Positions 4,245-64,000 of a DNA stretch of 64,000 bases are shown here, in pieces (position 1 is the stretch's first letter; each line of letters opens with the position of its first letter). The stretch covers positions 2,848,001 to 2,912,000 of the forward strand of contig CAVRAY010000001.1 of assembly GCA_963719225.1 (NCBI GenBank). Direction: 5' to 3'. A program made the position numbers and the translations under genes. A model generated the notes under the pieces. The model saw only the letters and a program-made list of their open reading frames with translations, had not been told where the DNA came from and searched no databases. The stretch comes from Thermoanaerobaculia bacterium. Its GTDB lineage: Bacteria > Acidobacteriota > Thermoanaerobaculia > UBA5066.

Positions 4245-5398
4245 CGCGAAAGTCCCTCTTCCACGCTCCGGCGAAGGGCGTCCGAGGCGCCCCGGCGCAT
4301 GACGAGCACGCCGTCCTTGGAGTCCACGACCGCGACGTCCGACAACCCGACGACGCGCACGGGCCGCCCTTCGGCGAGGACGAGGTTGCCGGAACCTTCC
4401 ACCGCGGCAGCGGGGCCTTCGAGCACGTTCCGGCCCGAAGCTCCACCCCGGAACTCGAAGACCGCTTCCCACGAGCCGAGGTCGCTCCAGCCGCACGCGC
4501 AGGGGACCGTGAGCACCTCACGAGCCTTTTCCATGACGGCGACGTCGAAGGAGACGGAGGGGGATGAAGAGAAGATTTCTGCGAATAAAGACGAAGAGGA
4601 AGAGGGGGTTTCTTCGAAGGTGGAAGAACCAGCTCTTCGAGCGGCATGTGCGCGGCGAGCGATGTTCAGGATATCGGGACACGCCCTCTCCATTTCTTCG
4701 AAGAGCAGCGAGGCCCGGAACACGAAGATGCCGGCGTTCCAATAGAAGCGGCCGGAGGCGAGGAATTGCTGGGCGCGCGCCAGGTCTGGCTTCTCGATGA
4801 ACCGTACGACACGTCGTGCCGCGGCTCCCCCTCCCCTCTTCCCATTCTCAGAAATCTTTTCTTTATTCCCTTTTTCTTCAGCAGAAATTTTTTCTTTCTC
4901 TTCTTCTTCTTCGACCTCCATGTACCCGAATCCCGTTTCGGCGCGCGTTGGCGGAATGCCGAGCGTGACGAAGGCGTCGTGCGTGTGCGCCGCGTCCGCC
5001 GCCGCGCGCAGGCCGGCGAGAAATGCCGCCTCGTCGCGCACGGCCTGGTCGGAGGGAAGGACGGCGAGAACGGCGCCCGGCTCGCCCTCCGATGCGGCAA
5101 GCGCGGAGAGCGCGATCGCGGGCGCCGTGTTGCGCCGCACGGGCTCGAGGACGAAGTGCGACCGCGCCACCTCGGGCAGCTCGGCGAAGAGGAGCGCGGC
5201 GTGGGCGGCTCGCCCGGAAATGAAAACGTTCCCGGCGCCGGCAAGGGCGATCGCGCGCCGAAACGTCTGCTTCAGGAGTGATTCGCCGCCCGTCAGCGCG
5301 AGGAAAGGCTTCGGACGCTCGTTCGTCGAGCGCGGCCACAGGCGCGTGCCGCTGCCGCCGGCGAGGATGAGCGCGCGGAGGCTCCCAGGGTGAGACAT
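4241..5398 (-). CDS. manC: Mannose-1-phosphate guanylyltransferase with two low-complexity insertions
   Basis: ILAGGSGTRLWPRS, EPVRRNTAPAI, TGFGY, RFIEKP, WNAGIF and WSDLGSW motifs. Confidence 0.9.
   Translation of the reverse strand: MSHPGSLRALILAGGSGTRLWPRSTNERPKPFLALTGGESLLKQTFRRAIALAGAGNVFISGRAAHAALLFAELPEVARSHFVLEPVRRNTAPAIALSALAASEGEPGAVLAVLPSDQAVRDEAAFLAGLRAAADAAHTHDAFVTLGIPPTRAETGFGYMEVEEEEEKEKISAEEKGNKEKISENGKRGGGAAARRVVRFIEKPDLARAQQFLASGRFYWNAGIFVFRASLLFEEMERACPDILNIARRAHAARRAGSSTFEETPSSSSSLFAEIFSSSPSVSFDVAVMEKAREVLTVPCACGWSDLGSWEAVFEFRGGASGRNVLEGPAAAVEGSGNLVLAEGRPVRVVGLSDVAVVDSKDGVLVMRRGASDALRRSVEEGLSR
4567..4860. repeat. Degenerate copies of the dispersed TTCTWAGAA motif inside manC
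   Basis: GAAGATTTCTGCGAA (about 4571), GTTTCTTCGAAGGTGGAA (about 4608), CATTCTCAGAAATCTTTT (about 4843). Confidence 0.5.
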
Positions 5399-5432
5399 CC
5401 AGAGGATTGTACGGGGCCGAAGATCGTCTAGC

Positions 5433-5461
5433 CGGGGGGAACCATTCTATGGTTCCCCCCG
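5433..5461. repeat. Strong 13-bp stem-loop (REP-like or terminator-like)
   Basis: CGGGGGGAACCAT-TCT-ATGGTTCCCCCCG just downstream of the substrate-binding protein gene; no U-tract. Confidence 0.65.
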
Positions 5462-5471
5462 CGCCCCCCTC

Positions 5472-8073: not shown

Positions 8074-8102
8074 GGCGACGCCATCCTAGGCCGATTCGCC
8101 GC

Positions 8103-8198
8103 GTTTTCGGACTTCTTAGAAGGGTGAGTGAAGTCGGGGCGGCGTGTCTCGCCTCGGCCGAACAAGAACGCGCTGCGTTCATTCACCTTCTAAGAAAA
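8103..8198. repeat. Inverted pair of the dispersed motif between pgpA and recA
   Basis: TTCTTAGAAGGGTGAGTGAA (8113-8132) and TTCATTCACCTTCTAAGAA (8178-8196). Confidence 0.85.
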
Positions 8199-8277
8199 GC
8201 TCCGCCGCCCGATGCGAAAGTCAAGCTAATCGAGTTTCCCAGAAACCTATATATTTGCCACGCTTGAAGGAGACCCA

Positions 8278-9423: not shown

Positions 9424-9427
9424 GGTC

Positions 9428-9925: not shown

Positions 9926-9964
9926 CCCGACGTCCCACGGCGGGCACCCGTAGAATCCGTGCTG

Positions 9965-12900
9965 ATGCGGCGGGGCCGAGCGCTCTCCTTCCTTCTCCGG
10001 CTCCTGCCGATCGCGGCCATGGGGCTGACGGTCCCGGCCCGCGCCGCTTCATCTCCGACCACGCTTTCTGCCTGGTTGAAGATCGTTCCAGGAGCCGCCC
10101 GCATCGGGCGGCTCACCTCCCTCGCCGCCGCCCCGCTCTCGCCAAACGCGCCCGGTCTCCTCCTGAAGCTCGACTCGGAAGGTTGGAAGCCCGGCAATGC
10201 CGCCGCGCGGGACGCGGTTCGCGCTCTGGCCAGGGAAGCGCATCGCCGGGGCTGGCGGTGGGGCCTCTCGCTCGAGCTGCCGGACGTGACGATTCCGGCG
10301 GATGTGCGCGCCGCCGAGGCGGCCACCGTCGAAGAGCTGTGGCCCGGACTCGGAGAGATTCTCAGGGTCGCAAAGGATGCGGACCTCGTCGCGATCGACT
10401 TCCAATACACGAGGGTTCCGGGAATTCATGACTTCGGGCACCCTCAGGAAGGCACATTCGACCCGAAGGCGCGGGCCTATTTGCTTAGAAAGGTAGCTGC
10501 GGGTGCGCGCGCGGCAGCCCCCCAAGCGCGTCTCGTCCTCGCCGCCGGTCCCCTCGCGAGAGGCGAACTTTTCCCCGCCGACGTCCGCAAACTCCTTTCA
10601 GAAGAAAATACCGCGTATTTCGACTTCGTCGGCGCGACCCCTCTCGCGTCGCCAAAACCCGGCGAAGTCCGAGTGGCGATCGATGACGTCGCCTTCGGCA
10701 AGCCCGCTCTCGTCGACCTCGATTCCTCCGGAGTCCGCTCCCCTGCGGACCTCCTCGCCGCCGCCGCGCGCCTCGCGCCGGAGAACGTCCCGTTCGTCGT
10801 CGCGAGCCCGGCGTGGGATCCCTCGAGGGACGCCGCCCTCGAGCGCCTCGCACGCCTCCTCGACGGCGATTTCGGGCCCGATTCCCGCGCGGCGACGGCC
10901 TCGGCGGCGGGCGGCGAAGCCCTCGACGTCTTCCGATTCGTCGAGAGAGCCGATCTCGGCGGCGTCGTCCTGGTCCCGGGGACCTCGCCGGCGGCGGGCC
11001 TCCCGTCCGGCACCTTCACGCTGACCCTCGACGAGACGGCATACGCCTCGGCCGAAGTCTTCGAGCTTGCGACCGGCGCCTCGAAAAAATTCGAAGTTCC
11101 CGCCCGCTCCGTCCCGGCCCGTCTCTCGCTCTCTCTCGGAAACGGCCCTCTCGGCGTGCGTCTCCTCGCCCGGGAAAAGCTCCCTTCGGAGGCCGCGAAG
11201 GCCGCTGTCGGCGTCGCCGTGACTCGCGGCATCACGGCCGACGAGATCCTCGCGAAACATCAGGCGTGGCGCGCCGCCCGCGACTCACGGTGGAAGACGC
11301 TCACGGCGCGGAGCACGATGTCGATGCGTTTTCGCTTCGCGGAATTGAACAACACGTTCGACCTCGCGCTCGCGGGGCCGTTCTTCTACGAAAAAGGCGG
11401 CAGCTACGACTGGGCCTGGAGCGAGGCGTACTTCAACGGCGTGCGCTGGAAAGGGAAGAAGATCCCCGAGCTGCCTCTCCTGCAGCCCGAGAAGGTCTCG
11501 GACATGCCGCTCGCCCTGACCTTCGACGACGCCTACGCCTACACGCTCGCGGGGCAGGACACCGTGAACGGCATCCCCTGCTGGGCGCTCGATTTCACGC
11601 CTCGCGCCGCGGCCTCCGACAAGCCTCTCTACGCCGGAACGGTCTGGGTCGCCAAGGCGGACTTCGCGGCAATCCGGACGCGCACGCGCCAGCTCAACCT
11701 CACGGCCGAGATCCAGGCCGTGGACGAGATCTCGGATTTCGGCGAGGTGCCCGCTCCCGACGGCGGGCCTCCTCTTCGCCTCCCCACGCACACGACCGGA
11801 CAGTGGATTCTCAAGACGTTTTCGCGAACCACCGTGATCGAGCGGGAGAGCACGCTTTCGAACGTGCGGCTCGATCCCCCGGGGTTCGTCGCCGAGCGTC
11901 AGGCGGCCTTCGCCTCGCCGGACGTCATGGTGCGGGACACCGAGAAGGGCGTGCGGTATCTCGAGAAGACGAAGGAAGGCGGGCGCGTCGTCACCTCCGA
12001 TACGAAGCGCACGCATCTGTTCGGTCTCGGCGGTGTCTTCTACGACAGCTCGTTCGATTACCCCCTCCCCCTTCTCGGCGTGTATTACGTCGACCTCGAC
12101 TTTCACAAGAGGCACGAGCAGCTGCAGGTTTTTTTCGGTGGGGTCCTCCTCGCCGCCTCGTACAACCAGCCGCGCCTCTTCGGGACGGCCATCGATGCAG
12201 GCATCGACGTCTTCGGCATCGCGATCCGGGGATCGGACGCGCTGTTCGTGGACGGGACGGAGGACAAGCTCCAGCGTGTGAAGTCGCGCTCGTTCGCGGG
12301 GAGCTTCAAGGCGGGCATTCCCCTCGGGCGGCACGTGAAGCTGTCGGCGACGCTCGGCGAGACCCATCGCGACTTCGCCGCCGACGACACGGAGACGTCG
12401 CCCGCGTTCGTCGTTCCGTCCGACCACTGGGTCACGCGGCTCGAGGGGCAGGCCGTCTGGGACCTCCGCGGATGGGCGCTCTCCGGACGGTACGCATGGA
12501 ACAGGCGCTCGCGCTGGGATCCGTGGGGCCCCGCCGGCAACCCGGACTACGCCCCGGGCAAGGACGAGTACCGTACGTATTCCCTCCAGCTCTCCAAGGA
12601 CTTTCACCTCCCGCGCTTCCAGCGCATTCAGGCGTCTCTTTCGTATCTCGGCTCGGACAACACGGACCGCTTCTCCAAGTACAGCTTCGGGTTCTTCGGC
12701 GGAACATCCCTGCGGGGCTTCCGCTCGGGTGCGCTGCGGGCCGAGGAGGCCGTCACGTCGAGGTTCGCCTACGGATACGTCTTCGGCGACGTCCTGCGCC
12801 TCGAGGTCGTCTACGACGACGCGCGCGTCAAGGACCTCGCGGCCGGGCTCGACTGGGCCTACTTCAGCGGAGCGGGCCTCTCGGGCGAGGTGCCCGGCCC

Positions 12901-16680: not shown

Positions 16681-16710
16681 GAAGAGGAAGATTTTCTTAG
16701 AAAGTGAATG
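16681..16710 (+). repeat. Dispersed motif copy at the purH-lolA junction
   Basis: GAAGAGGAAGATTTTCTTAGAAAGTGAATG. Confidence 0.8.
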
Positions 16711-17405
16711 CATCCCCGAGCATCCCGACCGCGCGCCGTAGTTTGTTCGGCGTCGCCTTTCTCGCCTGCGTCTTCGCCTTCGAAGCACGGCCGGCGAAGC
16801 CGGCCGCAACGCCATCTCCTCCCGCCACGGCATCCCTCGACTCGCGATCCGTCCTCGCGAGCGTCCGAAAAGCCTATTCCTCCACTCCCTCCGTCGGCTG
16901 CACGTTCGTGCAGACGTACGCGCCCGCCGGGTTCGCGGAGACCGCGCCCGAGACCGGACGGCTCGTCCTGCAGGCGCCGGACCGCGTGCGCTTCGATTAC
17001 GACGGGCCGGAGGGAAAGGTCTTCACGTTCGACGGCAAGGCCGGCCGGCAGTACGTTGCGGCGGATCGGCAGCTCGTCGTGCGGAGCCTCAGCCCCGCGG
17101 AGATCGCGCGGTTGCCGATCGTGTTCCTGGAGAGCCCCGACGCGCTTCTCGCGCGCTACGCGGCGCGCGCGGCCGCGATCGACGCCGGCCTGACCGAGCT
17201 CACCCTCACCCCTCGCGCCGGCGGCGATCCGAAATCGATCACGCTTCTCGCTGCGGCTTCGGGAGAGGTGAAGAGGCTCGTCCTCGTGGATGCCTCGGGC
17301 AACCGCACGACGTTCACGTTCACGCAGAAGGTGCCCGGCCCGAAGCTCCCGGATACCGATTTCGCCCTCGTGCCGCCCGCGGGAACGAAGATCCTCTCGG
17401 AGTGA
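16704..17405 (+). CDS. lolA: Outer-membrane lipoprotein carrier LolA family protein
   Basis: Signal peptide; FVQTY, GRLVLQAPDRVRFDY, DASGNRTTFTF and F..PPAGT motifs. Confidence 0.8.
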   Translation: MNASPSIPTARRSLFGVAFLACVFAFEARPAKPAATPSPPATASLDSRSVLASVRKAYSSTPSVGCTFVQTYAPAGFAETAPETGRLVLQAPDRVRFDYDGPEGKVFTFDGKAGRQYVAADRQLVVRSLSPAEIARLPIVFLESPDALLARYAARAAAIDAGLTELTLTPRAGGDPKSITLLAAASGEVKRLVLVDASGNRTTFTFTQKVPGPKLPDTDFALVPPAGTKILSE

Positions 17406-18990: not shown

Positions 18991-19114
18991 AGAAGATTTA
19001 ATTTCTTCGAATGAAAATAGGTTAAAGGCTAAGATTGCCTAATGATCGCCCCGCCATAGCCATCTGTACACCTAGGGCCCGAATTTAGTAAGGCACTTTC
19101 GAAGAAATCCCTTC
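18991..19114. repeat. Degenerate inverted pair of the dispersed motif in an AT-rich intergenic region
   Basis: ATTTCTTCGAATGAA (19001-19015) and CACTTTCGAAGAAATCCCTTC (19094-19114). Confidence 0.55.
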
Positions 19115-19769: not shown

Positions 19770-20528
19770 GTGCCCCGGCTGGCGACCTCCTCCCCCCCTC
19801 ACGCCGTCGCCGTCATCCCCTCCCGCTACGGGGCGGAGCGCTTTCCGGGTAAGCCGCTCCATCCGATCGCCGGAATTCCCATGGTCCTACGGGTCCTCGA
19901 GCGCGCGCGCGCGGCGAGACGGATTTCGACGGTCCTCGTCGCGACAGACGACGAGAGGATCGCGCGAGCGGTCGAAACCGCCGGAGGCCGGGCAGTGATG
20001 ACGGACCCGGCGTTGCCGTCGGGCACGGACCGGGTCTGGGCGGCCGTGAAAGACCTGGAAGTGGATGTCGTCCTGAACGTGCAGGGGGACGAGCCTCTGA
20101 TGGATCCCGAGAACATCGACCGCGTGGCGGGTTTTCTCCTGGAGCATCCGGAGTTTCCGCTGGCGACGGTCGCGCTTCCCATCGACGACCCAGCCGAGAT
20201 CGCGAATCCGAACAACGTCAAGGTCGTGCGCGGCGACGACGGCAGGGCTCTCTACTTTTCGCGCGCCGCTCTCCCCTACCGCCGGAGGCCCGAGACCGCG
20301 CTGCCGACGCTCAAGCACCTCGGCCTCTACGGCTACCGCAAGGACGCGCTGAGGCGCTGGACGAGCCTGCCTCAGCACGCCCTCGAGCGCGCCGAGAGCC
20401 TCGAGCAGCTCCGCGCGCTCGCGGCGGGAATGGCGATGGCGGTGCTGGACGCGGCCAGCGACTCGATCGGAGTGGACACGGAAGAAGATGCAAAGAGAGT
20501 AGAAGAGATTCTTCTCGCGGAGGTGTAG
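19770..20528 (+). CDS. kdsB: 3-deoxy-manno-octulosonate cytidylyltransferase
   Basis: [27 protein letters not shown] and ESLEQLRAL motifs; start uncertain (19725-19770). Confidence 0.95.
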
Positions 20529-20529
20529 G

Positions 20530-22221
20530 GTGGGAACCAAATACATTTTCATCACCGGCGGCGTGGTCTCGGGCCTCGGCAAGGGCATCGCCGCGGCGTC
20601 GATGGGCGCGCTCCTGGAAGCGCGGGGGTTCCGCGTCACTCTCCAGAAGTTCGACCCCTACCTGAACGTGGATCCCGGCACGATGTCGCCGTTCCAGCAC
20701 GGCGAGGTCTACGTGACCGACGACGGCGCCGAGACCGACCTCGACCTCGGGCACTACGAGCGGTTCACCTCCGCCGTCACCGGGAAGGCGAACAGCGTGA
20801 CGACCGGAAAGATCTATCTCTCGGTCATCGAGAAGGAGCGCCGCGGCGACTTCCTCGGGAAGACGGTTCAGGTCATTCCGCACATCACGGACGAGATCAA
20901 AGACTGCATCCGCCGCGTCGCGGGCGACAACGACGTCGTCCTCGTCGAGATCGGCGGCACCGTCGGCGACATCGAGTCTCTGCCGTTCCTCGAGGCGATC
21001 CGCCAGTTCCGCCAGGACGTGGGCCGCGGCAACGCGATCAACGTGCATCTCACGCTCGTGCCGCACATCGCGGCGTCCGACGAGCTGAAGACGAAGCCCA
21101 CGCAGCACTCCGTCAAGGAGCTTCTCTCCATCGGGATCCAGCCGGACATCCTCCTCTGCCGGGCCGACCGCTCCATTCCCGAGGAGATGAAGAAGAAGAT
21201 CGCGCTCTTCTGCAACGTGGACGAGCGGGCCGTCATCACGGCGCGCGACGTCCCGTCGATCTACGAGGTGCCGCTCGCGTTCGCGCGCGAGGGGCTCGAC
21301 GAGATCCTCCTCGACTACCTCTCCCTTCCCCACTACGACCGCGACCTCGCGAAGTGGGATTCGATCGTGAACCGCGTCAAGAACCCCCAGGAGGAGGTCA
21401 CGATCGCGTTCGTGGGCAAGTACGTGCAGCTCGGGGACAGCTACAAGTCCCTGAACGAGGCGCTCCACCACGGCGGCATCGCGAACAACGTGAAGGTCAG
21501 GATCTCGTTCGTCGATTCCGAGGAGCTGGAGACGGCCGGCTTCCCCGAGACGCTCGCCCGCGCGGACGCGATCCTCGTGGGGCCGGGCTTCGGCCGGCGC
21601 GGCATCGAAGGGAAGCTGAAGGCGATCCGACTCGCGCGTGAAACGAAGGTCCCGTTCTTCGGAATCTGTCTCGGGCTTCAATGCGCCGTCATCGAATACG
21701 CGCGGAACGTCTGCGGCATCAAGGACGCGAACTCGACGGAGTTCGAGCCGAACGCGCCGCACAAGGTCATCTTCATGCTGCGCGACCTCATCGGGGTCGA
21801 AGCGCTCGGCGGCACGATGCGTCTCGGGAAGTACCCGTGCGACCTCGCGGAGGGCACGCTCGCGCGGCGCGCGTACGGCGAACCGACGATCTGGGAGCGC
21901 CACCGTCACCGCTACGAGGTGAACCAGGAGTACCTGCCGGCGCTGCGCGACGCCGGCATGACGTTCTGCGGCATGTCGCCGGACCGGAAGTTCGTGGAGA
22001 TGATCGAGCTCTCCGACCACCCGTGGTTCCTCGGCTGCCAGTTCCACCCCGAGTTCAAGAGCAAGCCCACCGCGCCGCACCCGCTCTTCAAGGACTTCGT
22101 CCGCGCCGCCCGCGCCCACAAGCACGCGCGGCAGGAAGGTGTCGACAAGAAGAGCGCCGAGCTGGTGCCCGCCGTCGTCGCGCCGGCGAACCTTCCGACC
22201 CCGAACGGCCAGTCGGCGTGA
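20530..22221 (+). CDS. pyrG: CTP synthase
   Basis: [39 protein letters not shown] and QFHPEF motifs. Confidence 0.99.
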
Positions 22222-22452: not shown

Positions 22453-24720
22453 TCAGGAGCAGAGGGCCGACAGAGCCCGGGAAGCGCGGTCGATCTTCCG
22501 GTAGACGGGGATTCCGCCGCGCTGGAGGACGGCGACGAAATCGTCGTAGAGGCGTCCGGAGTCGACGTTCACGACGAGCGGCTTCTTCGTCGCGCGGAAG
22601 AGGCGCAGCAGCTCCTGGGCGAGCGCGCCCTTCGAAAACAGGTTCTCGGAGTGCGCCCCGAAAGGATCCGGCGCGAGGATGTCGAGCGACGGCGTGACGG
22701 GGATCGGAGACACGAGAAGGGAATCCACGCCGGGATCGTCGAGGAGCGCCGCCGCCGCTTCCACGAACGCGGGTGTCTCCGCCATGGGCGTCGCGTCGAT
22801 GGGGTTCGTCGCATGGGCGATGGCCGGAAGGCACGCGCGAAGACGGGCGAGCGTCGGTTCCGCGAGCGTTGCCGGCGTCAGGCCGTAGAGCTTGTCCAGA
22901 ACGGCCGCGCATTCGAAGCCGGCGTTCGAGAGCACCGCGAGACGCCGGCCCGCGGGCAGCCGGTCGCCGAGCATCGTATAGGCCTTCGTGTAGTCCTCGA
23001 ACATGTCGAGCGACTGCGCGACGAGAACGCCCGCACCCTCGAGAAGCGCTTTCGCGACCGCATAGTCGCCGGCGAGCGAAGCCGTGTGGCTGCGCGTGGC
23101 CTCGGCGCCGAGCGCCGTCTTGCCAGCCTTGAAGAGAATGACGTGGCGTCCCTCCTGCGTGACGCGGCGCGCCACACGCGCGAACCGCTCTCCGTCCATC
23201 GGCGCGAACCCTTCGACGTAGAAGACGAGGAGGCGGATGGTCGCGTCGTCGGCGAAGTACTCGAGGAAATCCGCCGCAGTGAGATCCATCTGGTTGCCGT
23301 ACGAGATCGACGCGCGGGGGAACACGATGCCGTCGAGGTTGCTCGTGAGCGAGACGAGGTACGCCCCGCTCTGGCTGACGGCCACGAGGCCGTCGCCCGG
23401 CGCGTCGTGGAACGGCAGCTTGTACTGAGGAAGGAAGAAGGTGTTGTACTGCCTCTTCGAGACGATGCCGAGGCAGTTGCCGCCCACGAGCACGGGCCCG
23501 CCGTCCGGCCTCGCGTGCGCGGCGGTCAGGGTTCCACGGAGTCGCGCTTCGAGATCGGCGTGGCCCGCCTCGCCGAAGCCGCCCGGAATCAGAATCACGG
23601 ACTCGGCTCGGCCGCGGGCGAGTGCTTCCACGACTTCCGTCGCCGCGGGGGCCGGCACGGAGACGACGGCGAGGTCGACTCTCTCGGGCAGAGCGTCCAC
23701 GGACGGGACGCATGGCACGCCGTCGATCGATTTCTCCTGCGCGTGGACCGCGAAGAGGTGGCCGTAGGCGATGCCGTCGGACTGCTTGAGGTTCCGGAGG
23801 ATGATCCGGCCCGGGTTCATCGCGTGTGCGGAAGCGCCGATGACTGCGGCGCTCCGGGGGGCAAGGAGTCGAGAGATCTTGGAGAGGGGACGCGGCGAAA
23901 GAGCAAGGCGCCGGGAGGAGATCCGCGCCTTCCCGTCCGCGACCACCCATCGCCCATCCGTCGTGAGCAAGAGCGGGTTTACTTCCAGTTCTTCAAGAGT
24001 CGGATTGCCCAGTGAGTTGTCAGGAGAATAGGAGAGAAGATTCTTAGAGAGGTTTTCGAGGCGAACGGCCACCTCGTCGAGCACGAGCGGCGCCTGCGCC
24101 TGCCCTCTATTCCTTTCAAAGAAAATCTTCAACGCCGGATTCTTCTCGACTCCAGCCCGGAGGCCCCGCTCCACCTCTCCGGGCTGCAAGATCACAGTCG
24201 TCGCCCCCGGCGCAAGCTCGCCGTACCACTCGGTCAGAACGCCGCCGAGGCCGAAGACGAGGACGGGCCCGAACGCGGGGTCGTGCTTGAAGGAGAGGAG
24301 CGCCTCGGCCGCGGGTGTGCCGGAGGCGGGAACGAGCTTCTCCACGACGAGGATCCCGAGGCGCTGGGCTGCGGGCCCTCGGCGGGAAACGTTTTCCCAC
24401 ATCGTCCTCGCCGCAGCGATGACCGACGCAGGAGATTTCTTTGAAAATGAGAATCCGCCGACGTCGGACTTGTGGGCGAGATCCGGTGAGACGATCTTGA
24501 GGACGACTTCGTCCCCTCTCGACCCTTCTAAGAAATCTTCAATCTCCGTGGGCACCAGCCCCGGCGCGCCGCTCCAGAAGACGTGTCGCGGCACGTCGAA
24601 GCCCGCCGCGCCGAGCAGCGCGTAGACCTCGTGCTCGAAGAGCGTCGCGCGGCCGTCCGCACGCGCCTTCCGGAGGATCGCCGCCGGTGAAACGGCGTCT
24701 ACCGCGGCCGCTCCGCTCAT
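22453..24720 (-). CDS. ADP-forming acetate/acyl-CoA ligase, beta-alpha fused order
   Basis: N-terminal ATP-grasp (LKIVSPDLAHKSDVGG, LEVNPL), then CoA-binding (AVIGAS, GGNCLG, SQSG, SHTASLAG). Confidence 0.9.
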   Translation of the reverse strand: MSGAAAVDAVSPAAILRKARADGRATLFEHEVYALLGAAGFDVPRHVFWSGAPGLVPTEIEDFLEGSRGDEVVLKIVSPDLAHKSDVGGFSFSKKSPASVIAAARTMWENVSRRGPAAQRLGILVVEKLVPASGTPAAEALLSFKHDPAFGPVLVFGLGGVLTEWYGELAPGATTVILQPGEVERGLRAGVEKNPALKIFFERNRGQAQAPLVLDEVAVRLENLSKNLLSYSPDNSLGNPTLEELEVNPLLLTTDGRWVVADGKARISSRRLALSPRPLSKISRLLAPRSAAVIGASAHAMNPGRIILRNLKQSDGIAYGHLFAVHAQEKSIDGVPCVPSVDALPERVDLAVVSVPAPAATEVVEALARGRAESVILIPGGFGEAGHADLEARLRGTLTAAHARPDGGPVLVGGNCLGIVSKRQYNTFFLPQYKLPFHDAPGDGLVAVSQSGAYLVSLTSNLDGIVFPRASISYGNQMDLTAADFLEYFADDATIRLLVFYVEGFAPMDGERFARVARRVTQEGRHVILFKAGKTALGAEATRSHTASLAGDYAVAKALLEGAGVLVAQSLDMFEDYTKAYTMLGDRLPAGRRLAVLSNAGFECAAVLDKLYGLTPATLAEPTLARLRACLPAIAHATNPIDATPMAETPAFVEAAAALLDDPGVDSLLVSPIPVTPSLDILAPDPFGAHSENLFSKGALAQELLRLFRATKKPLVVNVDSGRLYDDFVAVLQRGGIPVYRKIDRASRALSALCS
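24034..24540. repeat. Four copies (two inverted pairs) of the dispersed motif inside the acyl-CoA ligase gene
   Basis: GAAGATTCTTAGAGAGGT (about 24036), CCTTTCAAAGAAAATCTTC (24112), GAGATTTCTTTGAAAATGA (24432), ACCCTTCTAAGAAATCTTC (24522). Confidence 0.75.
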
Positions 24721-34016: not shown

Positions 34017-34424
34017 ATGAGCCGCGGCCTCTCCGTCGATCCCTCCGACGCCGTTCCGCTCTGGAAGCAGATCGAGGAGAACGTGCGGCGGCTCGTGGCC
34101 TCGGGCGCGATGAAGCCGGGCTCGGCCGTGCCCTCCGTGCGCGACCTCGCGCGCGATCTCTCGATCAATCCCGCGACCGTGGCAAAGGGCTATCAGCGCC
34201 TCGTGGACGCGGGAATCCTCGCCGTGAAACGGGGCGAGGGAACTTTCGTGGCCGAAAAGCCGCCGGCTCTCCCGCGTGGCGAGCGCGAGAAGGAGCTCGA
34301 AGGAGGCGCGATGCGCTACGCAAGCCTCGCCGTCACGCTCGGTGCGCCGAGCGAGGAGGCTGTGGAGCAGGTGAAACGCAGTTTCGGATTTCTTAGAAGG
34401 AAGAGAGAGGGGGGAGCGGAATGA
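34017..34424 (+). CDS. GntR family (YtrA subfamily) regulator
   Basis: PLWKQI, PSVRDLA..INPATVAKGY and RGEGTFV motifs; short C-terminus; precedes an ABC ATPase. Confidence 0.95.
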   Translation: MSRGLSVDPSDAVPLWKQIEENVRRLVASGAMKPGSAVPSVRDLARDLSINPATVAKGYQRLVDAGILAVKRGEGTFVAEKPPALPRGEREKELEGGAMRYASLAVTLGAPSEEAVEQVKRSFGFLRRKREGGAE

Positions 34425-34605
34425 CGACGCAGCAGCAGGCCGGTGGTGTCGTTGCCGCTGCGGGCCAGAGGGGCGATCCGTCGCGCGCGACTTCGGCGCA
34501 CCCGGCACATTCACCTTCTAGGAACTCTTCATTTCCGGTGGTCGAGGTTCGCCGCCTGCTCGTGAGATACGGCGGCAATCCGAAACCCACTCTCGAAGAA
34601 ATCTC
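34381..34605. repeat. Inverted pair plus one extra copy of the dispersed motif at the gntR/ATPase junction
   Basis: GTTTCGGATTTCTTAGAAGG (34381-34400), CATTCACCTTCTAGGAACTCTTC (34508-34530), CACTCTCGAAGAAATCTC (34588-34605). Confidence 0.8.
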
Positions 34606-35458
34606 TTTCTCCGTTCCCCGTGGCTCCGTGTATGCGCTGCTCGGGCGCAACGGCGCGGGCAAGTCCTCGCTCGTGCGCTGCCTCCTCGGCCAGCAGAAGC
34701 CGACCGCCGGCGCATGCGCGCTCTTCGGCGAGGATGCCTGGAGACGCCGGGCACGTCTCATGGCGAAGGTGGGCGTCGTCCCCGAGGACCCGGACGCGCC
34801 GCCCGCGATGACGGCGAGCGAGCTCTCGGCTTTCTGTGCGCGCTTCTATCCCTCGTGGGACGGCGCGGGCGTCACGGCCCGGCTCACCCGCTTCGAGGTC
34901 CCGGCGACGACGCCGTTCGGCAGCCTCTCGAAAGGTCAGAGGGCGCTCGTCTCGCTGTCGCTCGCCCTGGCTTCCTCGCCCGACCTTCTCGTCCTCGACG
35001 ATCCCACGCTCGGGCTCGATGCCGTCGCGCGCGCGGCCTTCTTCGACGAGCTCGTGGGCGAGCTGGCCGACCGCGGGACGACCGTCCTCCTCACCTCGCA
35101 CGACCTCGCGGGCGTCGAGAAGATGGCCGACCGCGTCGGGATCCTCAAGGGCGGGAAGCTCGTCCTCGACGAGACTCTCGAGAGTCTCAAGGCGCGCTTC
35201 CGGCGCCTGCGCTATGGAAACGAGGGGGCCGAAGATCCGGCCATGTACGGACAGGAGCTTTCGGCCTTCGACGCCGTCAAGGTCAAGGTGCGCGGCTGGG
35301 GCATCGAGGCCCTGGTCTCGAATTTCGGCGACGAGCCGTTTACGCGCTTTCGCGCGCTCGAAGGCGTCGTGGACGCCGAGGCGTCGGCGCTCTCTCTGGA
35401 GGAGATCTTCCTCGCCGTCGTGGGGGAAGCGTCTCCCGCGGCAAAGGGGAATGCATGA
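34421..35458 (+). CDS. ABC transporter ATP-binding protein
   Basis: GRNGAGKS, LSKGQ, LVLDDPTLGLD and SH motifs. Confidence 0.93.
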   Translation: MTTQQQAGGVVAAAGQRGDPSRATSAHPAHSPSRNSSFPVVEVRRLLVRYGGNPKPTLEEISFSVPRGSVYALLGRNGAGKSSLVRCLLGQQKPTAGACALFGEDAWRRRARLMAKVGVVPEDPDAPPAMTASELSAFCARFYPSWDGAGVTARLTRFEVPATTPFGSLSKGQRALVSLSLALASSPDLLVLDDPTLGLDAVARAAFFDELVGELADRGTTVLLTSHDLAGVEKMADRVGILKGGKLVLDETLESLKARFRRLRYGNEGAEDPAMYGQELSAFDAVKVKVRGWGIEALVSNFGDEPFTRFRALEGVVDAEASALSLEEIFLAVVGEASPAAKGNA

Positions 35459-37398
35459 AAGGCACTCTCGCCGTCGCGGCGCGGGAGATCGCGGAGCGGA
35501 AGCTTCTCTTTCTCGGCGCCTTCGTCGCCGGGCTTCTGCCGCTCGGGTTCCCGCTCATCCCCGTCTTGCATCACAACCCGCGTGAAGCGCGGTCCGTGGC
35601 CGTGCTCCTCGTGGCCGCCACGATCGCGGTGGCCTTTCCGCTGGTCTTCGGAGCCACGATCCTGGTCGGCGACATCGCCCAGAAGCGCCTGAGCTTCTAC
35701 TTTTCGCGGCCCTTGCCTGCCGCTTCGATCTGGGCCGGAAAGCTGCTCGCCGCGCTGGTGATCTCGATCGGTTGCGCCTTCCTCGCCGTGGCGCCGGTTT
35801 TCTTCCTGGAAGGGGAAAGCGCCTTCTCGTCCGACACGGGCGGCTTCGGTTCGCAAGGCCTCCTCGCTCTCGCCGTTCCTGGCGTTCTTCTCCTCCTTCT
35901 TCTCGCACATGTCGTGGCCTCGATGGCGCGGCTGCGCTCGGCCTGGATCGTTCTGGATTTCATCCTGGCTGCGGCCTTCACGGTCGCGATCGCGCTCTCC
36001 CTTCGAAGTCTCTTCCTCACGGGCTTCTGGGATCTCGAAGAGATGCGGCAGTCCCCCGACCCTCTCGCCGGATGGCTAGTCGCCGCGCTCATCGGGGTGC
36101 TTCTCGCCGCGAGCTGCGTGCAGGTGGCCGACGGGCGCACGGACGCACGACGCTCGCACGGAGCGCTCTCCGCGACGCTCTGGGGTCTTATCGCCCTCGC
36201 CGTGGCGATTCTCGGAGGTCTCGCCTGGTGGGCGTCGTCCGCTCGGGCGACGGACCTCGCGCGAATCGAACCCGGAGTCATGACGGCGCCCCGTGGGTCG
36301 TGGGTAGCCGTCGCTGGTCCCCTCCGCGCAGGACGGGGCGCGGGGAGATTCCTCTTCGACACCGAAGGAGGCCGCTCGGTGCGGATCCGGTCGGGCGAAG
36401 CCGTCTTCTCCGCGAACGGGGCGCGCGCGGCATGGGCGGAGGAGAGGATCGGATTCTTCGAAAGGGGGAGAAAGGCAGATCTCTTCGTCGCCGACCTCGC
36501 ATCGGCGAGGACCGTCAAGACGGGCCTCGAGAGCTCCGTGTGGTCCCGGGTCGCCCTCTCTCCGTCGGGAAACCGGCTGGCGGTTTCCGACGGGCACACG
36601 CTCGAGGCTTACGACGTTTCCAATCCCGCGAACCCGAAGCAGGCCGCGGCGATACGTGTCGAAATCAGCTCGAACACAGTCGTCTTCATCGACGATGACA
36701 CCGTCCGGATTTTTCCAAGGTACTACTGGGCGGCGAAGCGGAAGGACGTCACGCCGCGCGATTTCGACATCGAGGAGATCTCTTTCCTTTCTAAGAAATC
36801 TATCGTGACCGGCCGCTTCGATCGCGATGCTCTCCCTTACCTGCGTGTCAGCGCGGACGGGCGATATTTCGTCGGCACGAAAGAAAAGCGCCTCACGCTC
36901 CACGACGGCCGGACGGGCGCGGAGTTGCGGACTCTCGAGAGCGATCTCAAGGGCGCAAGAGCTCTCTTCATCTCGGGCGGCCGTATCGCCGTGGCCGGCG
37001 TCGCAGATGGAAAGGGAGTGTCGAGGATCTTCTTAGAAGGTGATGCGCGCGCGGCGGCTGCGCGCGCGATCGACCTCGGCCCGGCCGCGACCCTCGTCCT
37101 CGGAGGCGAAGTCGCCCCCGGGCGCGTCGCCGTGGCGCTCAATGCCTTTCTAAGCAATGACGAACGGTCACACCCAGCCTGGAAGCTCGCATTCGTGGAC
37201 GTGGTGACGGGTGAGGTCTCTCCCGGCCCCGATGGCCTTGCCCCCGCCGCCCGGTTCTCGTGGTGGTTCTCGCCCGTCCTGCCGCCTTCCGAAGCGGGAT
37301 CCCCCGCCTCGAAGCTCTTCCTCGACGCGTCCGGCGCGCTCGTGCGGCTCGATCCCGCGACTGGCAAGCAGGAAGTCCTCCTCGGCGGCAGACGCTAA
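35455..37398 (+). CDS. ABC-2 type permease fused to an extracytoplasmic beta-propeller-like domain
   Basis: Multiple TM segments with F.SRPL..IW.GK; FSANG, LSPSG and VSADG propeller-like repeats; ATGA overlap. Confidence 0.75.
   Translation: MKGTLAVAAREIAERKLLFLGAFVAGLLPLGFPLIPVLHHNPREARSVAVLLVAATIAVAFPLVFGATILVGDIAQKRLSFYFSRPLPAASIWAGKLLAALVISIGCAFLAVAPVFFLEGESAFSSDTGGFGSQGLLALAVPGVLLLLLLAHVVASMARLRSAWIVLDFILAAAFTVAIALSLRSLFLTGFWDLEEMRQSPDPLAGWLVAALIGVLLAASCVQVADGRTDARRSHGALSATLWGLIALAVAILGGLAWWASSARATDLARIEPGVMTAPRGSWVAVAGPLRAGRGAGRFLFDTEGGRSVRIRSGEAVFSANGARAAWAEERIGFFERGRKADLFVADLASARTVKTGLESSVWSRVALSPSGNRLAVSDGHTLEAYDVSNPANPKQAAAIRVEISSNTVVFIDDDTVRIFPRYYWAAKRKDVTPRDFDIEEISFLSKKSIVTGRFDRDALPYLRVSADGRYFVGTKEKRLTLHDGRTGAELRTLESDLKGARALFISGGRIAVAGVADGKGVSRIFLEGDARAAAARAIDLGPAATLVLGGEVAPGRVAVALNAFLSNDERSHPAWKLAFVDVVTGEVSPGPDGLAPAARFSWWFSPVLPPSEAGSPASKLFLDASGALVRLDPATGKQEVLLGGRR
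36786..37158. repeat. Three copies of the dispersed motif in the permease gene
   Basis: CCTTTCTAAGAAATCT (36786), GAGGATCTTCTTAGAAGGTGATG (37023), CCTTTCTAAGCAAT (37145). Confidence 0.8.
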
Positions 37399-55412: not shown

Positions 55413-55438
55413 CTGTCCCTGCGAGCGCGAAGGCGTTT

Positions 55439-56725
55439 TCACGCGAAAAGCGCCTCCCACGCTTCCCAGAATCCCGGCCACGACTTCGCGACGACATCTG
55501 GATCGTCCAGCGTCGAACCTCGAGGCAACGCGAGCGCGAGGACGGCGGCCGACATGGCGACGCGGTGATCTCCGTGCGCCACGAATGCCGCCGCTCGCGG
55601 GAAACCCGTCGGGCCGTCCACGACGAGGACGGGGCCGTGCCTGTCTCTCTCCTCACGCGCCGCCGCGCCCGCGCGCGCGAGCAGATCGAGCGCGGCCGCG
55701 AGGCGGTCGGACTCCTTTTCGCGGAGGCGCGCGACGCCCGTCAGGCGCGACGTGCCGCCCGCGAAGGCGACGAGCGCCGCGAGCGGGAGCGCGGCATCCG
55801 GCGCGGCGTCGACGTCCGCGTCGACCGGAAGAAGCGCGCGCGCGCCGCCGTCCGGCCCCGCGACCGTAAGCGCCTCCTCGCCATCCGGCGCTTGCTCCCA
55901 CCCGAGCGTTCCGCCCGCGGCAGCCGCCCACGCCCGGAAGGCCGCGTCCGGCTGCTCCGAGTCGCGCGCGAGGCCGCGCAGCGTCACGCGTCCTCCGGAG
56001 ACGAGCGCGCCCGCGATGGGAAAGCAGGCGGCCGAATCGTCGCCGCTCACGCGAAAGCGCGCCGGTCGGTAGCCGCCGCCCGAAGACGCGCCGAATCCGT
56101 CGAGGACGCGCCGGGTCAGAGCGAGATACGACGCCGACGAAACCTGCCCTTCGACCTCCATCTCGATGCCGTCCGGAACGACGGGCGACACGAGCATGAG
56201 GGCCGACAGGAATTGCGAAGAGACGTCGCCGCGGATCTTCACGCGCCCGCCGCGCAGCGAGCCGCCGCGGATCGCGGCGGGAAGGAAGCCTTCGCGCACG
56301 AGACACGTCACGTCTCCACTCAGGGTTCGGATTGCTTCGAAGAGAGGGCCCATGGGGCGCTCGCGCAGGCGAGTCGTGCCGTCCAGGACGTAACGGCCGG
56401 GGATCGCTGCGAGGAGGGCGGCGAGGAAGCGCGCCGGCGTGCCCGCATCTCCGACGTCGACGGTCAACTCCGCCGCCGCATCGCCGCGGGGACGCAGCGG
56501 TCCGCGCACCCGCCAACTCACACCTTCTAAGAAAATTTCCGCTCCCAGGAGCCTCAGCGCCGCCGCGAGCGCTCGCGTGTCTGTCGAATCCAGCGGATCG
56601 AGCAGCTCGCTCTCGCCTTCCGCGAGCGCCGCGGCGGCGAGCGCACGGTTCGTCAGGCTCTTGCTGCCCGGGACGCGGAGACTTCCGGCGAGACGGCCTC
56701 CCGGAAGGAGTCGGGGAACGTTCAA
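55439..56725 (-). CDS. aroA: 3-phosphoshikimate 1-carboxyvinyltransferase
   Basis: PGSKSLTNR, AGTPARF, SSQFLSAL, KESDRL, DHRVAM and KSWP motifs; TTG overlaps the upstream stop. Confidence 0.96.
   Translation of the reverse strand: MNVPRLLPGGRLAGSLRVPGSKSLTNRALAAAALAEGESELLDPLDSTDTRALAAALRLLGAEIFLEGVSWRVRGPLRPRGDAAAELTVDVGDAGTPARFLAALLAAIPGRYVLDGTTRLRERPMGPLFEAIRTLSGDVTCLVREGFLPAAIRGGSLRGGRVKIRGDVSSQFLSALMLVSPVVPDGIEMEVEGQVSSASYLALTRRVLDGFGASSGGGYRPARFRVSGDDSAACFPIAGALVSGGRVTLRGLARDSEQPDAAFRAWAAAAGGTLGWEQAPDGEEALTVAGPDGGARALLPVDADVDAAPDAALPLAALVAFAGGTSRLTGVARLREKESDRLAAALDLLARAGAAAREERDRHGPVLVVDGPTGFPRAAAFVAHGDHRVAMSAAVLALALPRGSTLDDPDVVAKSWPGFWEAWEALFA
56521..56540 (-). repeat. Dispersed motif copy inside aroA
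   Basis: CACCTTCTAAGAAAATTTCC, translated EIFLEGV with a TTA codon. Confidence 0.8.
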
Positions 56726-57543: not shown

Positions 57544-57615
57544 GGTGAGATCTTACCGGCTGAGATCACTTCGGGCACGCCGGTTGCACGGGACGTCGTG
57601 TCCCGTGCCCTCCAG

Positions 57616-60603: not shown

Positions 60604-60646
60604 AACGCTGCTCCGCGTCATTCGGGCGGACGTAGACTTCCCCGCC

Positions 60647-61084: not shown

Positions 61085-61121
61085 TCCGTCGCGGGCGCGG
61101 TCCTGCTATCGTCCGCCGCCC

Positions 61122-62756
61122 GTGATCGCACTCTCCGAAATCAACAAGCAGTACGGCCGCCAGGTCCTCTTCGTCGACGCCTCCTTTCAGCTCAACGCCG
61201 GCGAGAAGACCGGCCTCGTCGGCCCGAACGGCTCCGGCAAGACGACGATCTTCCGCCTCATCACGGGCGAGGAGCACGCCGACGACGGGGACGTCTCCGT
61301 GCCGAAGAAGCTCTCGATCGGTTACTTCAAGCAGGAGATCGACGAGATGGAAGGTTGGCCCGTTCTGGACGAGGCGATCGCGGGCAGCGGCCGCCTCGGC
61401 GACCTCCATCACGAGCTCATCGGGCTCGAGCACGCGCTCGCGGACCCGGAACGCGCGGCCGAGGCAGAGCACCTCCTGGCGCGGTTCGGCGACGTGCAGT
61501 CCGAGTACCAGACGCTCGGCGGGTACGAGCTGGAGGCGCGTGCCCGCGAGGTCCTCCACGGGCTCGGTTTCGACGACGCGCGCGTCGACGGGGACGTCGG
61601 AGAGCTTTCCGGCGGCTGGAAGATGCGCGTCGCGATGGCGAAGGTGCTCCTCGGCAGACCCGACGTTCTCCTCATGGACGAGCCCACGAACCACCTCGAC
61701 ATCGAATCCATCATCTGGCTCGAGGAGTACCTCGCGGGCTTTCCGGGCTCTCTCCTCATGACCTGCCACGACCGGGACTTCATGAACCGCGTGGTCACGA
61801 AAGTCGTCGAGATCGACGCCGGAGAGCTCGTGACGTACTCGGGGAACTACGACTTCTACGAGCGGGAGAGGACCCTGCGAGACGCGCAGCGGGAAGCCGC
61901 CTTCGCCCGGCAGCAGGCGATGCTCGCGAAAGAACAGCGCTTCATCGAGCGCTTCCAGACGCATGCCGCGAAGGCCGCCCAGGTCCAGAGCCGGGTCAAG
62001 AAGCTCGAGAAGATCGAGACGATCGAGCTCCCGAAAAAGCGCGCCGTCGTGCGTTTCGACTTCAAGCCGCCGCCGCGCTCCGGCGACGACGTGGCGATCC
62101 TCGAGAAGATCTCGAAGGCCTACGGGACGAGACGCCTCTACACCGGGTTCGATTTCCTGGTCCGGCGCGGCGAGCGCTGGTGCGTCATGGGCGTGAACGG
62201 CGCCGGGAAGACGACGCTCCTGAAGATGGTCGCGGGGGTCCTCCCTCCCGACGGCGGCACGGTACGGCTCGGCGCGAGCGTGAGGCTCGGCTATTTCTCG
62301 CAGCAAGCCCTCGATCTCCTCGACCCCGGGCTGACCGTCCTCGAGCAGGTCCAGAAGGACTTCCCCGCGGCCGGTCTCGGCGTATTGCGCGCGCTCGTCG
62401 GCGCGTTCCAGTTTTCCGGCGACGACGTGGACAAGAAGGTCCGCTTCCTGTCCGGAGGCGAGAAGTCGCGCCTCGTGATGGCGCGGATGCTCTTCGATCC
62501 TCCGAATTTCCTCGTTCTCGACGAGCCCACGAACCATCTCGACCTCGCCACGAAGGAAATGCTCGTCGTGGCTCTCTCGAAGTTCGACGGGACGATGCTC
62601 TTCGTCTCGCACGACCGCACGTTCCTGCGCGGCCTCGCGAACCGTGTCCTCGAGCTGACCGGCGAGGACGGCACGGCCGCGCCGCACGCGTACGGAGGGT
62701 CCTACGTGGAGTGGGTGGCGCGCACCGGCCACGAGGCTCCCGGCGTGCACGCATAA
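61122..62756 (+). CDS. ABC-F family ATP-binding protein
   Basis: Two NBDs (GPNGSGKT, LSGGW, DEPTNHLD; GVNGAGKT, LSGGE); no TM segments. Confidence 0.95.
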   Translation: MIALSEINKQYGRQVLFVDASFQLNAGEKTGLVGPNGSGKTTIFRLITGEEHADDGDVSVPKKLSIGYFKQEIDEMEGWPVLDEAIAGSGRLGDLHHELIGLEHALADPERAAEAEHLLARFGDVQSEYQTLGGYELEARAREVLHGLGFDDARVDGDVGELSGGWKMRVAMAKVLLGRPDVLLMDEPTNHLDIESIIWLEEYLAGFPGSLLMTCHDRDFMNRVVTKVVEIDAGELVTYSGNYDFYERERTLRDAQREAAFARQQAMLAKEQRFIERFQTHAAKAAQVQSRVKKLEKIETIELPKKRAVVRFDFKPPPRSGDDVAILEKISKAYGTRRLYTGFDFLVRRGERWCVMGVNGAGKTTLLKMVAGVLPPDGGTVRLGASVRLGYFSQQALDLLDPGLTVLEQVQKDFPAAGLGVLRALVGAFQFSGDDVDKKVRFLSGGEKSRLVMARMLFDPPNFLVLDEPTNHLDLATKEMLVVALSKFDGTMLFVSHDRTFLRGLANRVLELTGEDGTAAPHAYGGSYVEWVARTGHEAPGVHA

Positions 62757-62764
62757 TCGGCCGA

Positions 62765-64000
62765 ATGTCGCGCGCGCGGTTCGCGGCGGCCCTCGCCGCC
62801 GTCGTCCTTCTCGCTTTGCTGGGAGGCGAACGCGCGCGGTTCTCTCTCTGGACGACCTCGGACGAGCCTGCGCACCTCGCGGCCGCGCGCGAGTGGCGTT
62901 ACGGGCCCGGCATGGTCTCGAACTTCGAGCACCCGGTCCTCATGAAGGTCCTCGCGGGAGTCTTCCTCCCGCGCGAGGTCCCCGCCATGGAGATCGACGA
63001 GACGCGCACCGGCCGCACGCCCATGCCCTTCGTGTTCGCCGGCCTCGCCCTCGTCAGCGGCCTTTTCGCGCGCGCCCTCGCGGGAGACCTCGCGGGCATC
63101 GCCGCCGCCGCGCTCGTCGCCGTCGAGCCCACGCTGCGCGGCCACGGCGCCCTCGTCCAGAGCGACGCCCTCGTGACGTTCTTTCTGGTGGCGGCGGCGC
63201 TCGCGCTGGAATACGCGGCGCGCGGCGCGCGCCGCGAACGCGAGGCGAGAACGTGGCTCGTGGCGAGCGGCTTCCTCTACGGCTTCGCGATGGCGTCGAA
63301 ATATTCTGCTTTCCCGTTCCTCGCGGTGTTTGCTGCGATTGCTGCCTTTCGGCTCGCATCAGGCAGTTTTTCTTTGAACGTACGCCCCAGCCCTCTTCAC
63401 CTTCTAAGAAATTCTCTTCGTGCTCTCCCTTCGGTCCTTCTCTTTTTTGTAATTCCCGCCCTCGTGACCCTCTTTCTCATCCAATTCCTCACATTCTTCG
63501 GCACGAGTGATACCGCGTTTCGCGCGGGAATCGCGCACGAGTTCTCCGGCCTCCCGCAGGAGCGCGCCGTGGTCGCGCTGGCGCGCACGTTCCCGAAGTC
63601 GATCGCGGCGTACGGCGCGGGACTGCTCTTCGTGCAGGGCGTCGCAGGCCCCGGCGAACGCTTCAACTACTTCTTCGGTGAGATCTCGGGCCGGGGACAT
63701 GCGCTCTATTTCCCCGTCGCCCTGGGAATCAAGCTCACGACGGCGAGCGTCCTTCTCGTCCTCGCGGCGCTCGTCGCTGCGGTCGTTCTCGCCGCCCGGG
63801 GTTCGCGCTTCCGGAGCCTTCTCGCCGCACGCACGTCTCTTCCGGCCGTGCTCGGCGGAGCCTATCTCCTCGCGGCGTGCGCCTCGAACGTGAACATCGG
63901 CGTCCGCCACGCATTACCCGTGGTCCCGTTCGCGATCGTCGCCGCGGTCGGGACCCTTCGGACGCTCGTTCTCCGGCGCCGGACGCTCGCGCTCGCGCTC
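62765..64000 (+). CDS. GT39/ArnT-like GT-C glycosyltransferase (partial, runs off the window)
   Basis: Translated by hand: TSDEPAH, NFEHPVLMK, many TM segments; no stop in the stretches read, including the AT-rich patch at 63.3-63.5 kb. Confidence 0.8.
   Translation, partial: MSRARFAAALAAVVLLALLGGERARFSLWTTSDEPAHLAAAREWRYGPGMVSNFEHPVLMKVLAGVFLPREVPAMEIDETRTGRTPMPFVFAGLALVSGLFARALAGDLAGIAAAALVAVEPTLRGHGALVQSDALVTFFLVAAALALEYAARGARREREARTWLVASGFLYGFAMASKYSAFPFLAVFAAIAAFRLASGSFSLNVRPSPLHLLRNSLRALPSVLLFFVIPALVTLFLIQFLTFFGTSDTAFRAGIAHEFSGLPQERAVVALARTFPKSIAAYGAGLLFVQGVAGPGERFNYFFGEISGRGHALYFPVALGIKLTTASVLLVLAALVAAVVLAARGSRFRSLLAARTSLPAVLGGAYLLAACASNVNIGVRHALPVVPFAIVAAVGTLRTLVLRRRTLALAL
63366..63419. 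repeat. Dispersed motif copy with a degenerate inverted partner inside the GT-C gene
   Basis: TTTTTCTTTGAACGT (about 63367) and TTCACCTTCTAAGAAATTCTCTTC (63396-63419). Confidence 0.8.

Follow-up and report, generated by a model that had tools for sequence, protein, structure and literature searches.

Facing pairs of a polar, roughly 30-bp sequence arm within and between genes of two sister genera of Thermoanaerobaculia

The window analyzed here is a 64,000-nucleotide stretch of the genome of a Thermoanaerobaculia bacterium (contig CAVRAY010000001.1, positions 2,848,001 to 2,912,000), in which an initial annotation had pointed to the 9-mer TTCTWAGAA as a dispersed motif. All nine exact copies that it reported were found, and its rough estimate of chance occurrence holds: across 100 dinucleotide shuffles the average was 0.03 copies, and none reached nine. 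Six of the nine are read in open reading frames (ORFs), as IFLEG (56525 and 37030), DFLEG (24526), FLRR (34390), LSKK (36789) and HLLRN (63402). Pfam analysis assigned the motif-bearing aroA to EPSP_synthase and found acyl-CoA synthetase domains (24526), GntR (34390) and PMT_2 (63402), whereas ORF 35455-37398, previously labeled a permease, had no Pfam match. The relatives of the aroA gene are titled Thermoanaerobaculia or Acidobacteriota. No Rfam RNA family matched within the window at the gathering score.

The palindromic 9-mer itself proved not to be the unit. TTCTWAGAA is the core of an asymmetric, polar arm of ~30 bp (purine tract-GAAGAT-TTCTTNGAARG-KGAA), in which a purine-rich tract, GAAGAT, TTCTTNGAA, RG, KGAA and a G-rich end follow each other. 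Core positions C2, G6 and A7 are nearly invariant, core position 5 is free, and the flanks give the arm its polarity. The arrangement of arms in facing pairs had also been overlooked. When scored with a position weight matrix (PWM), eight of the twelve near-copies listed in the initial annotation were full arms (4610, 4845, 19003, 19098, 24041, 24115, 24437 and 34516), while two were weak (10482 and 37148) and two decayed in this genome (16779 and 63370). Further arms, absent from that list, were detected at 4577, 4878, 34592 and 36454. The window sites are as follows (arm scores are PWM scores; pair distances are those of each locus).

4577..4886, both strands: doubled facing pair with + arms at 4577 and 4610 and - arms at 4845 and 4878 (scores 20.8, 29.8, 32.8 and 18.8), in a mannose-1-phosphate guanylyltransferase gene (4241-5398, - strand; Pfam NTP_transferase)
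8113..8196, both strands: facing pair with 75-bp spacing in the divergent pgpA/recA intergenic region (matches to PgpA and RecA)
10482..10490, + strand: weak arm (14.9), its sole partner, at 10598, also weak
16694..16787, both strands: strong + arm between a purH-like gene and lolA; the partner at 16779 is decayed here (4.8)
19003..19106, both strands: intergenic facing pair with 95-bp spacing, 3' of a polyprenyl synthetase gene
24041..24123, both strands: facing pair with 74-bp spacing within an acyl-CoA synthetase gene (22453-24720, - strand)
24437..24534, both strands: facing pair with 89-bp spacing in the same gene (22453-24720), reading DFLEG and FSKKS
34390..34600, both strands: + arm in the GntR C terminus against - arms at 34516 (126 bp) and 34592 in an ABC ATPase gene
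36454..36797, both strands: facing pair with a wide spacing of 335 bp within ORF 35455-37398
37030..37156, both strands: facing pair with 118-bp spacing in the same ORF (35455-37398), the partner weak (14.4)
56525..56533, - strand: unpaired arm in aroA, read as IFLEG
63370..63410, both strands: very strong - arm at 63402 (39.5), its only + partner, at 63370, being weak, in a gene for a PMT-type glycosyltransferase

Arms at these loci are retained in some relatives and missing in others. In the acyl-CoA synthetase gene, compared across 20 relatives, the pair at 24041..24123 has both arms in 15, the - arm alone in 3 and none in 2, and the pair at 24437..24534 has both arms in 15, a single arm in 1 and none in 4; the relatives lacking both arms (2 and 4 of 20, respectively) have GC-rich sequence of the same length that encodes other amino acids. 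The aroA arm scores as an arm in six of the eight homologues covering the position and is missing in two, with no indel. Sites in these two genes arise by replacement, without insertion. Between the purH-like gene and lolA, the partner position 16779 scores as an arm in three of eight relatives, and the intergenic pair at 19003..19106 keeps its + arm at 9 and its - arm at 7 of 12 orthologous loci. Single-arm differences between genomes were seen as well. The kdsB-like/pyrG junction (window positions 20,509-20,530) is compact here; many relatives have a facing pair or a single arm at this place, with varying spacer lengths.

The genome containing the window (G000; 4.75 Mb in two contigs, C1 and C2; 68% GC, 97% complete, 6% contamination) harbors 273 exact copies of the 9-mer. 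With the iterated matrix, 759 matches were obtained at score 20, compared to 87 in the reversed genome used as a control, and the arm scores were bimodal with a trough at 16-18. According to gene calls made with a self-trained dicodon model, the boundaries of which are approximate, 549 of 758 sites (72%) lie within coding sequences (CDSs), in all six frames, and 466 of these 549 are located mid-gene, on both strands. A codon-aware background did not remove the enrichment: CDSs contain 168 exact 9-mers, while five synonymous-codon shuffles left 0-3. Intergenic DNA holds 28% of the sites in ~10% of the sequence. Several long stretches free of sites contain integrase genes. Unlinked arms share 70 exact matches of at least 24 bp (18-36 in simulations), ~10 of which come from one repeated element. 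A near-identical repeat of at least 85 bp with a single arm occurs in five copies (C1 1,112,869; 2,198,888; 2,200,874; 2,206,351; 2,209,386).

Most strong arms face a partner. Among pairings at most 400 bp apart, 290 were facing, 11 back-to-back, and 49 and 36 were in the two tandem arrangements. Counted by arm, 491 of the 679 strong ones face a partner at a distance of 60-250 bp, and 11 have one back-to-back. The median spacing is 114 bp, and 175 of 279 pairs lie within a single CDS. Outside kinase paralogues, 18 of 259 pairs are spaced by less than 68 bp, 81 by 68-95 bp, 117 by 96-170 bp and 43 by more, which places a floor near 68 bp. A helical phase of ~10.5 bp was absent from the pair spacing and from the flank dinucleotides. 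Along the chromosome the pairs are clustered (coefficient of variation, 1.44), with short gaps in excess. The spacers are mostly unrelated, ordinary gene sequence: only 53 of 255 had any match, and the largest group comprises the 93-bp pairs of the kinase paralogues. These Ser/Thr kinase genes form a tandem array at C1 2.29-2.32 Mb, with scattered further copies, and most have this 93-bp pair within the part encoding the kinase domain; a site cluster resembling that of the array is present in G175, a genome of the second genus, at C1 ~0.95-0.97 Mb.

The two arms of a pair show no sign of being made for each other. In every class, the similarity between partner arms was no greater than that between random arms (all |z| ≤ 2.2), and neither covariation nor compensatory changes were detected; the free core position showed a weak association (p=0.01), which is confounded by context. 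Mismatches between arms that are compatible or incompatible with G.U pairing numbered 898 and 840, without asymmetry along transcripts, and real pairs folded no better than chimeric ones (-22.6 compared to -22.4 to -22.8 kcal/mol). The arm profile is identical for both arms whatever the gene direction, and a fork-direction bias was absent (365 versus 393 arms). Hairpins, RNA duplexes and template-switch structures were rejected, the arms lacking covariation. Because the profile is the same both ways, G.U and fork biases are missing and pairs fold like chimeras, we infer that the signal is read on double-stranded DNA, arm by arm. The earlier proposal that the constraint acts on DNA is thus supported by the use of six frames, the absence of transcription- or replication-strand bias and of an RNA-pairing signature, the codon-aware null and retention across two genera.

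The sites are not distributed evenly between origin and terminus. Located by general recognition patterns, dnaA, parAB and parS lie at C2 ~326-335 kb and dif at C1 2,037,575; strand skew agrees with oriC and dif as placed. With the two contigs treated as one circle, the join of which was inferred from skew, the origin halves contain 205 arms and the terminus halves 553, at a density that is ~2.5-fold higher; the rise occurs at mid-arm on both replichores. Furthermore, the 419 core genes whose orthologues are present in a G083 sample of 800 kb carry 10.8 sites per 100 kb in the origin and 25.2 in the terminus halves (p=3.5e-4), although the effect is weaker when counted by gene (15 of 181 versus 35 of 238 with sites; p=0.049). 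Intergenic occupancy climbs toward dif from 13 of 275 (5%) to 42 of 256 (16%). Since the bias persists in core genes, and fourfold-site GC and protein divergence are flat along the replichores, the gradient is not due to mutation bias or to core-gene placement. In G182, 68 of the 100 sites listed lie in the 1.7 Mb around the terminus ParB, and G175 shows a terminus bias (56 versus 21 sites) on an inferred contig order. Mapping against origin, terminus and strand thus revealed denser sites in the terminus halves without strand bias.

The surroundings of dif have features of their own. In G000, dif is flanked by two arm pairs, and another parA-parB pair, the second of the genome, is found no more than ~1 kb away (L010:9865-11524; C1 2,037,865-2,039,524). 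A dif-adjacent parA-parB is also present in four relatives from three genera (L059, L068, L078 and L088), which suggests a terminus-linked partition system. About 13 bases past the XerD arm of dif, an imperfect palindrome, GCCTWA...TWMGGC, recurs in many genomes of the genera g1 and g11 (L012-L023) and is possibly a site for the second ParB. The main ribosomal-protein operons are at C1 ~2.69-2.73 Mb, ~70% of the oriC-to-dif distance.

The motif is confined to two sister genera, g1 and g11, and is not limited to one contig. A 12-mer version was counted 119-495 times in 27 g1 genomes (G000 included), 9-77 times in all seven g11 genomes and 0-5 times in 26 other genomes of the family. The rest of the class and phylum was at background, with 0-11 copies, near the control level, in 247 other genomes of the phylum. 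A single motif-free outgroup row (G025) was included, and no conclusion rests on it. No other word with the same pair geometry was found in the 200 kb around dif of G083, G167 and G027. The 16 viral matches were mostly AT-rich and chance-like, and a strict pair pattern gave 20 matches in metagenomes, 18 of which align to G000 at 72-90%. A published description of the motif or of the pair architecture was not found in the literature searched (subscription papers and supplements lay outside its coverage).

G000 was also compared with G003 over one 400-kb stretch. At 85% identity over 301 kb, 67 of 79 sites were common to both, and core positions C2, G6 and A7 were 99-100% conserved. Several of the 12 differences correspond to 30- to 45-bp patches of clustered changes. 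Shared among aligned site positions were 79 of 93 in G182 (~76% identity), 7 of 17 in G175, 1 of 12 in G083 and 0 of 10 in G167. In comparison to motif-free genera, arms replace residues outright, and they sit at spots where the protein is variable: in G167 compared with G083, two genomes having few arms or none, amino-acid identity is 0.46 at site positions versus 0.70 far off. A roughly twofold rise in A+T at fourfold sites extends ~75 bp to either side of arms and is absent from motif-free orthologues. Indels between G000 and G003 number 10-21 per kb inside pairs versus 2.0-2.5 far away, whereas strictly synonymous divergence is raised only slightly (0.34 inside pairs, 0.40 just outside, 0.305 far). 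This indel excess with barely raised synonymous divergence is therefore attributed mostly to tolerance of variable protein loops. Third-position identity of spacers between clades is 0.57 inside and 0.60-0.63 outside, revealing no homogenization, and gene trees of neighboring segments differ in a mosaic manner. No short reversed segments were present at 29 loci from relatives or in 301 kb of G003, where the alignments, within contigs, continue through the pairs.

The proposal that the motif is a protein-binding site is supported in part, the arms being probably read by a protein. Among candidate readers, Y1_Tnp/RAYT was rejected because G000 (97% complete) has no match. A topoisomerase IB was present in one of five genomes (in G000 only; C1 1,293,072-1,293,704, - strand), and PD-(D/E)XK AddAB-like genes in all five, the motif-free one included. 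ComEC was found in 54 of 60 genomes, among them 16 of 17 motif-free g13 genomes. A tandem ComEA-like protein came closer (20 of 24 g1, 4 of 6 g11 and 0 of 14 g13 genomes), yet two motif-free genomes have one. G000 has comEC, dprA and two comEA-like genes, and arms occur in recA and in each of the comEA-like genes; comEC and helix-hairpin-helix genes also occur in motif-free genera. One ComEA-like protein (L184:7226-7921, + strand) has a signal-peptide-like N terminus, two helix-hairpin-helix domains and a long low-complexity linker; in its gene, one arm supplies the start codon and a second lies in the linker. Six tyrosine recombinases and four HU/IHF genes are also listed as candidates, and in the block compared around dif no DNA-binding gene stood out as limited to the two genera. 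Tex-like proteins of ~800 amino acids occur in g13 and other genera and were not found in G000, with none among the matches listed in g1 and g11. A pair of UvrD-like genes sharing identical N termini (C2 180,553 and 635,432) may reflect duplication or contamination (6%).

Tentatively, and short of an even chance, we favor the reading that the arms are paired sites of a putative lineage-specific protein that organizes or segregates the late-replicated half of the chromosome, because the terminus-half gradient is symmetric and explained neither by gene content nor by mutation bias, and by analogy to MatP and ZapT. MatP action scales with how densely matS sites occur locally, these sites lying largely within a domain of ~0.6 Mb (PMC11564523), and ZapT sites are terminus-biased and mostly within ORFs (PMC7188993). 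Like these, the arms become denser toward dif on both replichores. Unlike matS, they are polar, paired, ~10 times more numerous, spread over half of the chromosome and near oriC, and unrelated in sequence, and ZapT sites are without a consensus motif. Each arm would load the putative protein in a fixed orientation, and the protein would act in the direction in which the arm points, by tracking, sliding or polymerizing along the DNA. A rigid looping dimer is disfavored because the orientation is strict, the floor approximates two footprints, and the helical phase that a rigid loop would impose is missing. Two facing arms would cooperate, with the ~68-bp floor representing two protein footprints. 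As for MatP and matS, the effect would be set by local density toward the terminus; selection would keep each pair, and new pairs would settle where the protein tolerates amino-acid change. Spelled out fully, and held no more firmly, the arms may be polar sites that work only face-to-face, CTCF-like but 70-250 bp apart, read by a putative tracking protein, strong enough to rewrite enzymes and splitting the chromosome into an origin and a terminus half.

Several observations weigh against chromosome organization. More than a quarter of the sites (205 of 758) still lie in the origin halves, unlike in the matS domain, and 143 strong arms are unpaired. The contig join behind the gradient was deduced from skew, and G182 and G175 share gene order with G000 and are not independent tests of it. 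A range of 9-495 copies of the 12-mer per genome is wide for a core structural signal. Patches of 30-45 bp with low identity amid genomes 85% alike, together with bimodal scores, indicate heavy, abrupt-looking rewriting, which resembles drive more than mild selection. Finally, no reader was found among the ParB2, RAYT, TopIB, AddAB-like, ComEC and tandem ComEA candidates; the dif-linked ParB2 has a match in every one of 61 genomes from the order, and motif-free genomes show no change in its recognition helix.

Molecular drive is the rival that we take most seriously, while considering it somewhat less likely. Here a polar site would favor the entry, survival or short-tract recombination of the DNA ahead of it and spread selfishly, as do uptake signal sequences (USS) and DNA uptake sequences (DUS), with facing arms each promoting the other's spread, tandem arms benefiting in part and back-to-back arms gaining nothing. 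The order of facing far above tandem above back-to-back and the decay over ~250 bp suit such a polar, short-range effect, the wide range of copy numbers points to drive, and restriction to genera recalls USS/DUS. So do hundreds of non-palindromic copies on both strands, with a core and weaker flanks, in coding DNA at tolerant positions and clade by clade (PMC2817400, PMC2397512), as well as the use of several coding frames and the presence of competence machinery, parts of which bear arms. New DUS copies differ from the homologous sequence at many bases, and their spread by drive has been argued (PMC2397512), similar to the abrupt multibase replacement without insertion seen here. The position of sites in variable protein segments, the integrase genes in long site-free stretches and the mosaic gene trees fit as well. 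However, drive does not account for core genes being enriched in sites in the terminus halves while mutation bias stays flat. USS/DUS are more evenly spaced than random (PMC2817400), unlike the clustered arms, and the paired USS described lie within 14 bp (PMC7811141), near-adjacent and at intergenic terminators, whereas the arms form obligate-looking facing pairs 68-250 bp apart within genes. In Haemophilus influenzae, uptake is not increased by another USS lying within 100 bp (PMC7811141). Spacers are not homogenized between clades, no receptor was identified, and neither comEC nor tandem ComEA, for which 4 of 24 motif-rich genomes gave no match, follows the motif. USS/DUS are in excess in DNA-maintenance genes (10.1101/2025.10.24.684340); of such genes here, 18 of 46 carry a site, whereas 12.5 would be expected from core genes, which reduces the excess to z=1.9. 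The initial annotation had proposed either chromosome organization or uptake. Organization gains the replichore-symmetric terminus-half enrichment, and an ordinary uptake signal fits less well because of the strict facing pairs inside genes and the clustered spacing.

The remaining explanations mostly fail direct tests and together receive about a quarter of the probability. Quite improbable is a mutational process acting locally, by template switching or by an error-prone enzyme directed to the site, that writes the second arm, mutates its surroundings and leaves pairs as by-products. The doubled fourfold A+T near arms, absent in motif-free orthologues, and the indel excess inside pairs suit it, but partner arms resemble each other no more than random arms do, synonymous divergence is hardly raised, and long-term core conservation requires continued recognition. 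Slightly less credible still is a nonautonomous mobile element of the REPIN, MITE or RPE type with the arms as terminal inverted repeats. Inverted doublets, hundreds per genome and with a mode near 70-95 bp, recall the 71-bp REPIN doublets, pairs come and go at intergenic junctions (kdsB-pyrG and around dif), and long exact arm matches are somewhat in excess. REPINs, however, lie outside genes, form hairpins in which changes are compensated and come with a linked RAYT (PMC3116915), while the arms are 72% intragenic, lack covariation, enclose ordinary gene sequence and have no Y1_Tnp/RAYT in G000. MITE- or RPE-type coding insertions likewise disagree with unrelated interiors orthologous to site-free alleles of equal length, so that this explanation is largely refuted for intragenic copies. 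Least probable of all, and very much so, are recombinase sites at the ends of segments that can invert or be excised, or an ordinary transcription-factor regulon. Site-specific recombinases need a minimum distance for synapsis, which the inverted orientation and ~70-bp floor resemble, and the intergenic enrichment also speaks for this group. Against it stand between-genome alignments that run straight across the pairs, the missing helical phase and the mid-gene location of most coding sites on both strands.

Two further systems invite comparison. KOPS, SRS and Chi are polar motifs read by translocases. The arms share with them polarity, purine-rich flanks and abundance in coding DNA, but are much longer, paired and without leading-strand skew (365 versus 393); GGGGAG-type words, in contrast, are strand-skewed in G000. 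The Xanthomonas GGGAATC repeats also form convergent pairs, 70-75 per genome and of unknown function, yet are tandem heptamer arrays, ~90% intergenic and without origin or terminus preference (PMC4692102). The arms thus behave as genome-wide signals that override coding sequence, yet USS/DUS, matS, REPIN, MITE/RPE and KOPS/Chi all have one or more defining features that they lack.

Known motifs that override protein sequence across a genome are few (USS, DUS, Chi, KOPS and matS), and none of those compared acts as unphased facing pairs within genes. With so sharp a boundary between clades (two genera, 9 to 495 copies) and with the bait defined, the reader is within reach of comparative genomics and of pull-down experiments. 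If the arms spread by drive, they would constitute a pair-built uptake or recombination signal, unrelated in sequence to USS/DUS and outside both known families. If they serve chromosome organization, they would represent a new way of marking the late-replicated half of a bacterial chromosome.

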